Source of the DNA: Sulfolobaceae archaeon
Lineage (GTDB): Archaea > Thermoproteota > Thermoprotei_A > Sulfolobales > Sulfolobaceae
Length of the DNA stretch: 64,000 nt
Assembly (NCBI GenBank): GCA_038893355.1
Contig: JAWARQ010000002.1
Coordinates: 64,001-128,000 of the forward strand
Direction: 5' to 3'
A model generated the notes under the pieces. That model was not told the DNA's origin. It did no database searches and worked only from the letters and a program-made list of their open reading frames with translations. The position numbers and the translations under genes are program-made. Shown here piece after piece: positions 6,574 to 10,399 of the stretch; positions within the stretch are counted from its first letter, which is position 1, and every line of letters begins with the position of its first letter.

Positions 6574-6728
6574 ATGATTCCCTATGTTTATACTATCATA
6601 GCTTAATATAAAAGAGTTTATACTACACTTTCACTTTTATAGAAACAGTCTGGCGTTCAGTAATAAACCTTTTGGTCAAACCTCAAGCATAATCTCAACT
6701 AAGATTGCCACGTGGGCCCTATATAGGA

Positions 6729-6857
6729 GATAGTGTCACCACTAAGCTACAAAAATCCCTTTTACCCTATAACATTTCATGAAAAATTACATTTTACACC
6801 TCTACTCTATAAAGGGAATTTTCATACAATAATTTATAGCTTAATAGTGACACTATC
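6729..6857. mobile_element. 129-bp MITE
   Basis: TIRs GATAGTGTCACCACTAAGCTA and TAGCTTAATAGTGACACTATC (19/21 match); non-coding interior. Confidence 0.85.
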
Positions 6858-6990
6858 TGATTTTTTCTAATTAATTATAAATTATAATTAATATGTATAT
6901 ACTAATAAAATTTTAATTTAATATAAATTAATATGTATCTCTTCCCATTATCATTGCTCTTATGAAAATTCTTATACATCTATAATTCAC

Positions 6991-8133
6991 TTAACTCTTC
7001 TTTTCCTTTAAATATCCAAATAAGTAAGTTATGCCTGATATAAGGACAAAGATAGAGTCAAAATAAAATGGTAATGTATAGCTAGCATCATATAAATATC
7101 CAGAAATAGCATAGCCTATAATGCTACCCAAGTCTTGAGAAGCAGAAATAATACCAACTGCAGAACCCTTAATACTCACTCTTCTACCAATATACGCGGG
7201 CCAAAGTGTGTACAGTGCATTAATAAGAATTGCATTAATGAAAGCGATTAATATAATAACAAATATATTTTTAGAAAGATAAAATAATATTAATATTGAA
7301 GATATTATCAAATTGGCACCTATAATTAAAAATTCATGTAAATTTTTACCATAATTTCCCCATAACTGTGATGCTAAAATATTTCCGATACCAATCATTG
7401 TATAAGTTATACCCACATAACTTGCATTAAGATCTAAAATATCTACTACGAATAATGGAAAAACTATTTGAAATATGCCAAGTCCAATATATTCAAAAAA
7501 GTTACCTAATAAAACTATTAAAATTGATATATTTTTTAAATTTTGAAAATTTATATTATTATTCATCATGTTAATATTATAAACTTTTATATAATTTTTT
7601 AAAGAAAATAAAATTATTAAAGAAAATAATAAAATAATATTTACAAATAGAAAGAAAATTTTATGATTGAAGGTATATAATAGGGATCCAATTAAAGGTC
7701 CTATAGTAGTTGAGATGTAAGAAAGACTATTATATAATCCAAAAGCTTTCCTATATTCATCTTCTTTACTTATAGTCATGATATAAGCTATTAATGAAGG
7801 TCTAAGGAACGAAGTACCAATACCTTCTATCAATCTAACGAGAAATAGATACTGCCAAATCTCTATGAAGTCATAGATGATAAATGCAATTAAATAAAGG
7901 ATAAGTCCTAATAATAATATATTATACTTATTCTTAATATCGAATAGAAAGCCTGTTATCGGTTGAATAATTATCCTAACTATTACATAATTAACTACTA
8001 AAAGTCCTATAGTATAAGTAGGTGCCCCCAGATTTTGGGCGTATAGTGGGAAAATGATAAGAAATGAGAAAAACACAGTATTCACAAATATACTTACAAT
8101 AGAGAGCATTAATAGTACATGAAGTTTATACAA
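6991..8133 (-). CDS. MFS transporter, probable exporter of the cluster product
   Basis: About 12 hydrophobic segments, motif A-like GFLFDIKNK, RLIEGIG, GPLIG; starts 3 nt after the rSAM stop. Confidence 0.9.
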   Translation of the reverse strand: MYKLHVLLMLSIVSIFVNTVFFSFLIIFPLYAQNLGAPTYTIGLLVVNYVIVRIIIQPITGFLFDIKNKYNILLLGLILYLIAFIIYDFIEIWQYLFLVRLIEGIGTSFLRPSLIAYIMTISKEDEYRKAFGLYNSLSYISTTIGPLIGSLLYTFNHKIFFLFVNIILLFSLIILFSLKNYIKVYNINMMNNNINFQNLKNISILIVLLGNFFEYIGLGIFQIVFPLFVVDILDLNASYVGITYTMIGIGNILASQLWGNYGKNLHEFLIIGANLIISSILILFYLSKNIFVIILIAFINAILINALYTLWPAYIGRRVSIKGSAVGIISASQDLGSIIGYAISGYLYDASYTLPFYFDSIFVLISGITYLFGYLKEKKS

Positions 8134-8136
8134 TTT

Positions 8137-9201
8137 CTAATCCCTTAGTGTTTTTGGACAAAATGGGTCTGGAGCGTAAATATCATTTAAGAAAAGGTAT
8201 GCAAATACCCTTGAACCACCTCTGCATTTCTCTACGAATTCACAACTTATACAAGGTTCTTTGAACCAATCATTCTGTCTAAACATATTAAGAGCAACAG
8301 AATTTTTCCATATTTTATCTATAGAATTTTCCCTTACATTATCAAATTTAATAACCCCTTCATAAAGTAATGTGTCTGCAGACTCCACTAAAGGTAAAAC
8401 GTAACCTTCAGGATTTATTATCATACCATAATATCCCCATATGTTAGGCTTAACTTTAAAGTAATCTTTAGCACGATTAATAATTTTAAAACTAATATGC
8501 CTATTATATTCTGCTTCTAAATCAGAAACAATTTCATTAATCTGTATTATTTCTTTAAATTTTGGAATAATCTTAGGATTCTTATAAGCGAAGCCTGCCG
8601 GCAAAACTGGCTGAATAATTAAAGCGTCTAGCTTCCTATATTTTGCATCTAGTTCAATTATTAATTTTAAAATTTTCTTTAGTTTCTCATATAAATTAGC
8701 ATAAATTGACAAATGAAATATTGCAGCCTTATGTTCTCCTTCTTTTTCTTTAAATAATATAATTTTTTTGTAAAAATATTCTAAATTTCTGAATATATTA
8801 TAATCATCACTATTGGCATATCTATATACATGTAGGCTTAATTGCATTAAATCTAGGTAATCTCTAATAATTTTAATGCCATTTTCATTTAATAATAATC
8901 CATTAGAGGAAAGAGCAGTAATCGTATTAAACGATTTAGCATATTTAATTAATTCAATTACACCCTCATATTTTAGAGGCTCTCCTCCAGTAAATATCAA
9001 AATTTTAGTACCTAGCTCAACCACTTGCTTAATTATAGATTTCCATTCCTCTATACTTAACTTTTTTCTATCCATATGAGTTGGGTTAAAACAATATGGG
9101 CATCTGAGATTACAGTCATAAGTTAATTGTAATTCTACAATATGTGGTATCTTTGGATCTAAAGATAATAATTTACTTTGATTTTGTAAAAAATCAAGCA
9201 T
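8137..9201 (-). CDS. PqqE-like radical SAM/SPASM peptide maturase with atypical SPASM domain
   Basis: ELQLTYDCNLRCPYCFNP, FTGGEPL; C-terminal WFKEPCISC-x5-C...PDPFC parallels PqqE. Confidence 0.88.
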   Translation of the reverse strand: MLDFLQNQSKLLSLDPKIPHIVELQLTYDCNLRCPYCFNPTHMDRKKLSIEEWKSIIKQVVELGTKILIFTGGEPLKYEGVIELIKYAKSFNTITALSSNGLLLNENGIKIIRDYLDLMQLSLHVYRYANSDDYNIFRNLEYFYKKIILFKEKEGEHKAAIFHLSIYANLYEKLKKILKLIIELDAKYRKLDALIIQPVLPAGFAYKNPKIIPKFKEIIQINEIVSDLEAEYNRHISFKIINRAKDYFKVKPNIWGYYGMIINPEGYVLPLVESADTLLYEGVIKFDNVRENSIDKIWKNSVALNMFRQNDWFKEPCISCEFVEKCRGGSRVFAYLFLNDIYAPDPFCPKTLRD

Positions 9202-9213
9202 GTTGTAAACCTT

Positions 9214-9366
9214 TTACAATTTTTCCAACGATATCGCTATAACTCCTATATATAATGAAGAACTGATAGGATTGTAATCTACTATATCTTTGTTTCTACT
9301 TAATTCTTTTTTAATCTCATAGACTTTATTTATAGTTATGAATTTAGTAGATAGGTTTCCTTGCAT
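9214..9366 (-). CDS. Putative 50-aa RiPP precursor peptide MQGNLSTKFITINKVYEIKKELSRNKDIVDYNPISSSLYIGVIAISLEKL
   Basis: Internal ATG of the 97-aa track ORF, preceded by GGGGGAT and a TATA box 25-30 nt upstream; ends 12 nt before the rSAM ATG. Confidence 0.7.
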   Translation of the reverse strand: MQGNLSTKFITINKVYEIKKELSRNKDIVDYNPISSSLYIGVIAISLEKL

Positions 9367-9390
9367 TTTTATCCCCCAGATTATCTTTAA

Positions 9391-9411
9391 CTTAAACGGT
9401 TTTTTTTTTTT
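9391..9411 (-). promoter_or_regulatory. BRE/TATA promoter of the peptide-rSAM-MFS operon
   Basis: Minus strand A12-CCG-TTTAAG, with the TATA 25-30 nt upstream of ATG 9366. Confidence 0.6.
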
Positions 9412-9534
9412 AACTCTCAATAATTCTAAAAAGTTATCATAAATAACAGTTATTATGTCAATAAAATTTAAACACTTGTCATTAATACTAATATCATATA
9501 TAAACAATTTTTAATAAACCTTAAGAATTACATT

Positions 9535-9897
9535 CCCGTAGACCCCAAATTCATCACCTCGAAAATAATTCTAGAGAGTTAAAAATTGGATAGAATAATT
9601 TAACTGAATATTCTTGAATCGTAGTAATATTACCTTACAAAACAAAATCAAGATAATTAGTAGTAAGCGGAAGTCCTCTTTGCTTGTTGTTCCCCTTGAA
9701 GAGTAGGTAAAGCGTGTAAATTAACATTGCCAAAGCGAAGATGAACAAGCGAACTAACCAACTCCTTGATGAGGTAAAGATGAGAAATGATTTGATTAGC
9801 TTGTAAGAAGTCTCTATTGGTGTCCTAACCTTGTCATACCAATTTATTACAATACTCCTATGCACGTCTAGGTTCGTCCCCTTGGCCAAGTACTCTA
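9535..9897 (-). pseudogene. 3' fragment of an ISH3-family (IS4-like) transposase with its terminal sequence
   Basis: EYLAKGTNLD..YDKVRTPIETSYKLIK..FTSSR..RLFIF DDE C-terminal signature. Continues through two frameshifts (GTTSKEDFRLLL; QEYSVKLFYPIFNSLELFSR*). Putative end CCCGTAGACCCC at 9535. Confidence 0.85.
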
Positions 9898-10258
9898 TAT
9901 AGGAAGTTGATTAGGATTGTATTGAGTGTTTGATATAATAATAAGCCTTACGAGCCTAAGTGATTGAGGAACCCTCCCCTAATCGCCACGTGGGCCCTTT
10001 AGACCCACGTGGTAATGTTAGCTTACACTATGCTTGAAATATGACCGAAAGATTTATTACTAAACGCCAGGCTGCATAGAAATATCCAAACAACTTAATT
10101 GCTAATTTTTCGAAATTCTTTAGTATTAGTATATAGATAACAAGGGCTAATTAAAATTATAAATTATATTATATAATTAAAAAGATAAAAAATTATTTTA
10201 TTATTTTTAATTAAATTATGAATACATCTAAAAATTGAAATTTAATTTTAAAACTTTA

Positions 10259-10344
10259 CGCCGGGGGCGGGATTTGAACCCGCGCGGGGGAAACCCCCAG
10301 CGGCTTAGCAGGCCGCCGCCCTGGCCAGACTAGGCGACCCCGGC
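10259..10344 (-). tRNA. tRNA-Ser(GCT)
   Basis: GCCGGGG/CCCCGGC acceptor stem, GCGGC-CT-GCT-AA-GCCGC anticodon arm, long variable arm, GGTTCAAATCC. Confidence 0.97.
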
Positions 10345-10399
10345 AATATATCATATTTATTTACTCCTTAAAAACTCTTATTCACTTAGAATTGATTTC

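Follow-up and report, generated by a model that had tools for sequence, protein, structure and literature searches.

Does a small gene unit lying among housekeeping genes in a Sulfolobaceae archaeon encode a peptide, the radical S-adenosylmethionine (SAM) enzyme that modifies it and the pump that exports the product? The unit occupies positions 6991–9366 of the stretch analysed here, referred to below as the window, which comprises 64,000 nucleotides (nt) of contig JAWARQ010000002.1 (positions 64,001–128,000) of assembly GCA_038893355.1; the genome holding it, G000, is 84% complete, and other G numbers denote its Sulfolobales relatives. Three co-directional frames lie on the minus strand: a candidate precursor open reading frame (ORF) of 50 amino acids (aa) (9366–9214, ATG start, MQGNLSTKF...SLEKL in the ORF listing), a radical SAM enzyme of 354 aa with a half-SPASM domain (9201–8137, ATG start), and an efflux-type transporter of the major facilitator superfamily (MFS) of 380 aa (8133–6991, TTG start). 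The frames are separated by 12 nt and 3 nt respectively, which confirms the layout of peptide, enzyme and exporter proposed in the initial annotation. With moderate confidence we read the unit as a compact cassette gained by horizontal transfer, in which the short ORF would be the precursor of a ribosomally synthesised, post-translationally modified peptide (RiPP), the enzyme, which lacks the ligands of a first auxiliary cluster (AuxI), would modify its C-terminal part, and the MFS protein would export the product or a fragment of it.

The predicted enzyme falls within the radical SAM superfamily, carrying the CxxxCxxC motif and matching Radical_SAM (PF04055) at 64.2 bits (cut-off 29.5), and it also matches SPASM (PF13186) at 29.2 bits (cut-off 21.5). 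Its best match among NCBIfam families is PqqE (TIGR02109), at 168.6 bits compared to a cut-off of 381.35 and hence at less than half of it, followed by the heme b synthase AhbD at 97.8 bits. The closest solved structure by sequence is again PqqE (6c8v, E 1.9e-24). An AlphaFold2 model of the enzyme has a predicted local distance difference test score (pLDDT) of 91.9, and Foldseek returned PqqE 6c8v at 1e-18, then the peptide maturases SuiB, CteB and SkfB (1e-14 to 1e-12), with DesII, BlsE, anSME and viperins further down.

The enzyme contains exactly seven cysteines. C30, C34 and C37 form the CxxxCxxC motif, which is preceded by about 25 residues, and C317, C320, C326 and C348 lie at the site of the second auxiliary cluster (AuxII); the invariant radical SAM and cluster residues are all retained. 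According to the available text of PMC5715301, SPASM domains carry a seven-cysteine motif, CX9-15GX4C-Xn-CX2CX5CX3C-Xn-C, and two auxiliary clusters, the ligands in PqqE being C248, C268, C323 and C325 for AuxI and C310, C313, C341 and Asp319 for AuxII. In the alignment with 6c8v the window enzyme has no cysteine at any of the four AuxI positions and has a cysteine where PqqE has Asp319, giving AuxII four cysteines compared to three cysteines and an aspartate. Four of the seven cysteines of the SPASM motif are present, the first two and the last cysteine of CX3C being replaced. Twitch domains, as described in the same portion of PMC5715301, lack CX2CX5CX3C and keep the first auxiliary cluster, while here CX2CX5C...C is kept and the first-cluster cysteines are lost. 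Because it has no AuxI cysteine but a complete four-cysteine second site, the enzyme is neither a full SPASM nor a Twitch protein, but rather the reverse of a Twitch.

This cysteine pattern is not confined to the window. Among 38 aligned enzymes, 11 have no cysteine in three columns of the first site and the other 27 have them, and in an IQ-TREE phylogeny of the 38 rows a single branch (support 92/80; present in 90% of bootstrap trees) separates the 11 AuxI-less enzymes from the rest and places them as sister to the PqqE clade. Within this set the window enzyme clusters with P0002 and P0121–P0123, four proteins from metagenomes (99/96), P0002 being 38–40% identical to it. The other six enzymes form a Sulfolobales group with support of 100/100, which corresponds to ‘PqqE-1’ of Saccharolobus solfataricus (AAK40864.1). 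With moderate support, the window enzyme thus appears to belong to the same AuxI-less clade as ‘PqqE-1’.

Close relatives of the window enzyme itself are scarce. A search of 1.84 billion representative proteins found only P0002 (40% identity, 251 bits) and then nothing above 158 bits, and a scan of genome contigs yielded 19 loci, mostly bacterial PqqE at 25–30%. The 80 loci kept from a metagenome scan were headed by PqqE-like enzymes with pqq-like neighbours and included no close relative. A profile (A2) gave no match at 1e-45 in 400 other Thermoproteota genomes; neither enzyme type occurs in the Sulfolobales plasmid records or in the phage records, and plasmids overall gave only bacterial pqqE at up to 29%. 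No curated NCBIfam family covers the group of the window enzyme or that of ‘PqqE-1’.

The Sulfolobales group provides the closest comparison for the gene layout. A profile built from four rows (the window enzyme, P0002 and the enzymes of G017 and G024) was run against 301 Sulfolobales genomes. Nine genomes scored 242–574 bits, that is G000 and 8 of the 300 others; the next matches were fragments at no more than 157 bits, and the best unrelated full-length match reached 144 bits, tandem pairs resembling AhbC/AhbD being among these. G017 and G024 score high by construction, and the remaining six (G018, G221, G257, G085, G087 and G272) are independent. ‘PqqE-1’ occurs likewise in S. shibatae, S. 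caldissimus, Acidianus hospitalis and A. brierleyi (AWR95673.1). A short ORF encoding PPSYYM, or a variant with one residue changed to A or I, lies upstream of the enzyme in all six loci that were read (G017, G024, G221, G257, G085 and G087; loci L002, L004, L036, L037, L038 and L039), as in ...KEYIIKKFETEIAMQRRKYMMYYTIHPPSYYMVSW and MEIDEEYVIKKFENEIKIQKRKYTMYYTVHAPSYYMTSW. The motif either closes the short frame or sits within it; in G087 it is near the N-terminus. An MFS gene of 392–418 aa follows the enzyme in G017, G018, G024, G221, G257 and G087, the family scan having been run on two of these proteins. The homologue survey that the initial annotation had called for thus finds the arrangement recurring with enzymes of the ‘PqqE-1’ branch, with a short ORF that is clearly conserved. 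Three of these short frames have no exact match in a collection of 15 billion proteins, which suggests that they are unannotated precursor genes.

Comparison of these cassettes (hereafter YYM cassettes) also indicates how they have spread. The G017 and G024 cassettes are 72% alike at the DNA level, and amino acid identity between them is 67% for the short ORF, 71% for the enzyme and 64% for the MFS protein. G017 (L002) and G018 (L003), which belong to different genera, share 2730 nt at 97.7% identity with differing flanks, the block extending from just past the MFS gene to a point some 120 nt ahead of the short frame, and an ISC1217 transposase abuts it in G017. Similarly, G221 (L036, genus g8) and G085 (L038, family f3) share 2447 nt at 99.8% identity. 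Such near-identical DNA across genera and families points to recent transfer or to mis-binned contigs of metagenome-assembled genomes. Since the short frame is as conserved as its neighbours and near-identical blocks have different flanks, we conclude that short frame, enzyme and MFS gene together form a selected, mobile unit in Sulfolobales. Decay is frequent among the copies: the G221 enzyme contains two stop codons, in G085 the enzyme is truncated and the MFS gene is missing, and G257 has a second, broken copy.

The window unit resembles the YYM cassettes in the clade of its enzyme, in the order of short ORF, radical SAM gene and MFS gene on a single strand, where any gaps or overlaps are short, and in having mobile DNA nearby, ‘PqqE-1’ being sporadic in its distribution. 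It differs from them in several respects: the window enzyme is just 28–31% identical to the ‘PqqE-1’ enzymes, which have an N-terminal insertion after CxxxCxxC; the aromatic core PPSYYM-SW, conserved in their precursors, is absent from the window ORF; and the MFS proteins are not orthologous. The architecture common to the window unit and the YYM cassettes may therefore be either very old or convergent. In both cases it ties this kind of enzyme to a small frame upstream and an MFS gene, which supports the window short frame as a precursor only by analogy.

A candidate for that role does lie in the right place beside the maturase, with a Shine-Dalgarno (SD)-like motif, a fair coding score and no homologue. 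The N-terminal 30 residues of the 50-aa ORF are basic and hydrophilic (isoelectric point 9.3, grand average of hydropathy (GRAVY) -0.60), and the C-terminal 20 residues (YNPISSSLYIGVIAISLEKL) are hydrophobic, with tyrosine and serine (GRAVY 0.83). The G-rich motif GGGGGAT (9371–9377, minus strand) lies 4 nt 5' of its ATG and is called SD-like on the basis of what we take to be the Sulfolobales consensus. GGGAT is found three times on the coding strand of 6991–9600, twice immediately ahead of a start, once for the peptide and once for the MFS gene; its rate in the genome is 0.73 per kb per strand, and the motif was picked post hoc. A gene caller lists the ORF on two contigs. Its in-frame hexamer score of 0.378 lies between those of the MFS gene (0.301) and the radical SAM gene (0.461) and exceeds 92% of 519 spurious ORFs, 7.7% of which equal or exceed it. 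The ORF is nested in a longer frame of 97 aa with a TTG start at 9507. In one contig from another metagenome (depth 5.5), a 1-nt deletion in an A-run at 9400 would break that longer frame and spare the 50-aa frame. The SD-like motif, the coding score and this deletion are modest direct evidence that the 50-aa ORF may be a gene.

Structure prediction lends weak support to the pairing of the 50-aa ORF with the enzyme. Docking the two gave a score of 0.35 (runs of 0.35, 0.23 and 0.39), compared to 0.02 for the highest-scoring of three controls; the runs share at least 71% of their contacts and the pLDDT of the partner is at least 49. Of 80 solved complexes 58 attain the mark applied, as do 2 of 110 mismatched pairs, counts that apply only roughly here as the docking used an alignment of our own construction. 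At scores of 0.60 or less, just 7 of the 80 solved complexes attain it, together with both of the mismatched pairs that passed.

The transporter (380 aa) is assigned to MFS_1 (PF07690) with 138.8 bits and also scores 30.4 bits for PF05977. Drug/H+ antiporter and efflux families head its NCBIfam matches, none of them reaching the cut-off, and its hydropathy profile shows 12 partly overlapping hydrophobic stretches in about eight separate regions. Its TTG start is preceded by one of the GGGAT motifs mentioned above.

If these predictions are correct, translation of the 50-aa ORF would yield a precursor whose leader, about 30 residues long, is basic and whose C-terminal core is hydrophobic and contains tyrosine and serine. 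The enzyme would cleave SAM at the C30/C34/C37 cluster and abstract a hydrogen atom from a residue of the core, and the sole remaining auxiliary cluster (C317/C320/C326/C348) would serve in electron transfer. The most likely product would be an intramolecular cross-link involving Tyr31 or Tyr39, comparable to the action of PqqE and SuiB on aromatic side chains. The efflux-type MFS protein would then export the product, or a smaller fragment freed by host proteases. One can only speculate that such a product might act as an antimicrobial or a signal, as the initial annotation suggested.

Several results weigh against this reading, most of them concerning the short frame. Only the 50-aa ORF itself was found among 5.8 billion proteins, a search of the ESM Atlas gave no usable match, and no Pfam or NCBIfam family matches it. 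Among true 50-codon windows its coding score reaches only the 14th percentile, and the extension upstream of it scores 0.425, frames rich in K, I and N scoring well in this AT-rich genome. The copies from other metagenomes are identical to the window in the unit and therefore offer no substitution pattern to read. There is no RiPP recognition element (RRE) or PqqD domain: PF05402 has no match in the window, G000 matching it just on contigs C4 and C15, and only the 25 or so residues noted above precede the cluster motif of the enzyme. An RRE is not universal among radical SAM RiPP maturases. The family scan of the neighbours found no protease in the unit. With respect to the transporter, MFS pumps usually carry small molecules, not 50-residue peptides. 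The window MFS protein is only 23% identical to that of the G017 cassette (E 0.007), and its best matches in G017, G024, G257 and G087 lie at loci other than the cassettes. The two not being orthologous, the shared layout may therefore be convergent, and we reject the MFS gene as evidence of a common ancestral cassette.

Direct comparison of the 50-aa ORF with the YYM precursors was likewise negative. Built from four YYM precursors, a hidden Markov model (HMM) places it 2956th among the 31,813 ORFs of the genome (E 950), an HMM of their leaders alone ranks it 20,885th, and the best Smith-Waterman score against five YYM precursors is reached by 21% of 3000 shuffled sequences (P = 0.21). It has neither their leader EY-IKKFE-EI nor their core. 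All three approaches being negative, we reject it as a homologue of the YYM precursors. A resemblance in K-Y-IKK ([KE].Y.IKK occurs in 5 of the 31,813 ORFs) was discounted, the pattern having been defined post hoc.

The reading of the unit as an exported modified peptide, put forward in the initial annotation, thus stands in part: the recurring layout and the peptide-maturase relatives of the enzyme favour it, and the short frame, with no homologue and no likeness to YYM precursors, does not. The most serious alternative, which we judge unlikely, is that only the two larger genes form the unit, the enzyme having as its substrate a small molecule, or else a peptide or protein whose gene lies elsewhere, the MFS protein moving that substrate or the product, and the 50-aa ORF being a chance frame in AT-rich leader DNA. 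An orphan ORF unlike the precursors of the sister clade would be expected in that case, AT-rich frames rich in K, I and N, such as the upstream extension, obtain coding-like scores in this genome, and both the usual cargo of MFS pumps and the lack of an RRE for leader binding fit it. Furthermore, SPASM/Twitch enzymes with non-peptide substrates exist: DesII, BlsE and the viperins are among the more distant Foldseek matches, and AhbC/AhbD-like pairs are the next-best matches in Sulfolobales. Against this alternative, a conserved short ORF occupies the same position in all of the sister-clade cassettes that were read. The nearest neighbours of the enzyme in structure and sequence are peptide maturases, an SD-like motif precedes the ATG, the 12-nt spacing to the enzyme gene fits an operon, and the docking passed its controls, if weakly. 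We continue to favour the precursor, maturase and exporter cassette.

That this cassette was acquired is suggested by its surroundings. The neighbours identified by the family scan, namely aIF-1A, a RIO kinase, a KH protein, a DUF4898 protein and aconitase, are housekeeping genes. The block orf181-KH-RIO-aIF1A is kept in all eight relatives examined, and the block that adjoins aIF-1A in seven of the eight maps in G000 to another contig (C3:121401–127080); synteny therefore breaks exactly at the unit. Multicopy repeats lie on both sides. On the left are a repeat of about 70 nt (6646–6728; 10 BLAST hits in G000 including itself) and a 131-nt element (6728–6858) resembling a miniature inverted-repeat transposable element, with 26-nt terminal inverted repeats (6728–6753 and 6833–6858, 88% complementary, inverted repeat I2) and 11 hits in G000 including itself, at up to 93% identity. 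On the right are a repeat of about 360 nt (9536–9896; six hits including itself, 68–80% identical), which holds an 84-aa ORF with no Pfam match, and one of about 170 nt (9901–10074, or 9901–10069 as counted among the flanking repeats; 10 hits including itself), a copy of which at C9:100–266 is 92% identical over 168 nt. The last 70 nt of the latter are the right inverted copy of 6646–6716, and this inverted pair (6646–6716 and 10004–10074, about 82% alike) brackets the three genes. Beyond it lies a tRNA-Ser(GCT) gene (10258–10345, minus strand; found by ARAGORN, Rfam tRNA 53.5 bits), a possible integration target. No transposase is present among the window ORFs inside the bracket. The mobile-element scars described in the initial annotation are therefore real, and a lineage-specific synteny break between repeats fits the horizontal acquisition that it proposed.

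Base composition bears on the same point in a more equivocal way. Compared to a genome GC content of 0.325, the MFS gene has 0.256 and the radical SAM gene 0.279 (2.6th and 7.4th percentiles among 721 ORFs of at least 250 aa), partly consistent with the suggestion that the genes are more AT-rich than their neighbours. GC content at third codon positions is ordinary, however, at the 14th–16th percentile.

These surroundings also raise the possibility that the genes are idle cargo, intact passengers of a repeat-bounded mobile segment that are silent or lack partner functions. The bracketing inverted repeats and the synteny break would suit this explanation, and the related cassettes decay readily, as in G221, G085 and G257. 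We nevertheless consider it improbable, since the three frames are open and the invariant radical SAM and cluster residues are kept. Four other runs, belonging to three studies, also have contigs with pieces identical to the unit and not a single differing letter within it; the organism and cassette are therefore not an assembly oddity of a single sample.

A true PqqE working in pyrroloquinoline quinone (PQQ) biosynthesis, with the short ORF as PqqA, is hardly credible and is refuted as far as sequence can go, for although PqqE is the top-scoring family and solved structure, the family score lies far below the cut-off, the enzyme falls outside the PqqE clade, the AuxI cysteines of PqqE are missing and a cysteine stands at the Asp319 position, the 84%-complete genome has no pqqB or pqqC match at E <= 0.01 (a weak blank for pqqC, whose control was found in 0 of 14 control genomes), and no pqqD lies nearby. 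The initial annotation was thus right to argue against PQQ synthesis, and its statement that the unit holds no pqqB, pqqC, pqqD, RRE or protease gene agrees with the profile searches and the neighbours as far as these go.

The unit can also be compared with the PQQ system and other characterised maturases. Like PqqE, to which its clade is sister, the enzyme combines a radical SAM core with a C-terminal Fe-S domain, and the substrate of PqqE is a small ribosomal peptide whose gene lies just upstream, according to the available text of PMC5715301. It differs from the PQQ pathway in the absence of pqqB, pqqC and pqqD, in the MFS gene that follows the enzyme and in a short ORF that lacks Glu-X3-Tyr. 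That motif is the defining feature of PqqA. SuiB (streptide), CteB (sactipeptide) and SkfB share the fold and each have a precursor gene beside them. These solved maturases span 383–440 residues in the Foldseek alignments, compared to 354 for the AuxI-less window enzyme, the extra N-terminal part presumably being the leader-binding (RRE) domain.

The combination of radical SAM maturase, precursor and transporter is already known as a kind. What is new here is the arrangement of cysteines in this enzyme clade, the host lineage (Sulfolobales), the minimal layout with an MFS gene only and with no RRE or protease, and the orphan precursor candidate. More tentatively, we suggest that the AuxI-less sister clade of PqqE may be a new archaeal class of RiPP maturase, spread in Sulfolobales as minimal cassettes of precursor, maturase and MFS exporter, of which the window would hold a second, orphan branch with a new type of precursor. 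As the exporter is an MFS protein and the cores are rich in tyrosine, the product may be a small cross-linked molecule derived from the peptide in the manner of PQQ or mycofactocin, not a long peptide, and would be the first of its kind from Thermoproteota. If this is so, thermoacidophilic archaea would make and export radical SAM-modified peptides from mobile three-gene kits, with enzymes that work with one auxiliary cluster compared to two in textbook SPASM proteins, which bears on how the electron of the oxidised substrate is handled. In agreement with the initial annotation, no characterised radical SAM-dependent RiPP from Sulfolobales was found in the literature searched, although the supplementary tables of biosynthetic gene clusters of PMC13635244 and PMC10105419 might list such clusters; the available text of PMC10105419 gives sulfolobicins and halocins as the only described archaeocins. 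A related cassette, whose precursor gene is absent from the protein collection, is present in the cultivable and genetically tractable Saccharolobus solfataricus, so the question can be tested at the bench.

A second cassette in the same genome has a comparable form. On contig C15 (L151 1–1935) a 60-aa ORF, a PqqD-like protein of 87 aa (PF05402, 42 bits), a radical SAM/SPASM protein of 374 aa and an MFS fragment truncated where the contig stops (30.1 bits, slightly below the cut-off) follow one another on one strand. The gene order, including the MFS gene after the enzyme, is that of the window unit. The C15 cassette differs in having the PqqD-like protein and in the full-SPASM cysteines of its enzyme, which include cysteines absent from the window enzyme, to which it is 28% identical. 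This shows that kits of radical SAM and MFS genes with a small upstream frame recur in the lineage, one version being canonical and the other reduced.

In many Sulfolobaceae the next-best matches to the enzyme are tandem pairs of radical SAM/SPASM genes (about 378 and 350 aa; L005–L008 and L012). As AhbD is the second-best NCBIfam match of the window enzyme, these pairs are taken to be the AhbC/AhbD heme genes, an assignment drawn from sequence likeness.

Some further observations concern the repeats. The 70-nt repeat has a core of CCACGTGGG and occurs in about 10 copies in G000, on contigs C1, C2, C3, C4 and C9. Contigs of two other metagenomes join approximately position 6715 to approximately position 10000 on opposite strands; these joints probably reflect the inverted repeat, and could be due to inversion or to repeat-induced assembly. 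Copies of the 9536–9896 repeat on contig C7 (L152 1732–2128 and 5077–5257) flank a PaREP1 gene and a 437-aa ORF that has helix-turn-helix matches and archaeal-integrase matches, the latter all sub-threshold. This repeat may mark where an integrated element ends.

The search for regulatory and RNA features added little. A scan with a sigma-70-type promoter and terminator model gave 31 sites compared to 27.3 expected, which is uninformative as the model is bacterial and the organism an archaeon, and the Rfam scan found the tRNA gene only. Beside that tRNA-Ser gene lies an AT-rich tandem repeat (10148–10205) with a period of 26 and 2.2 copies.

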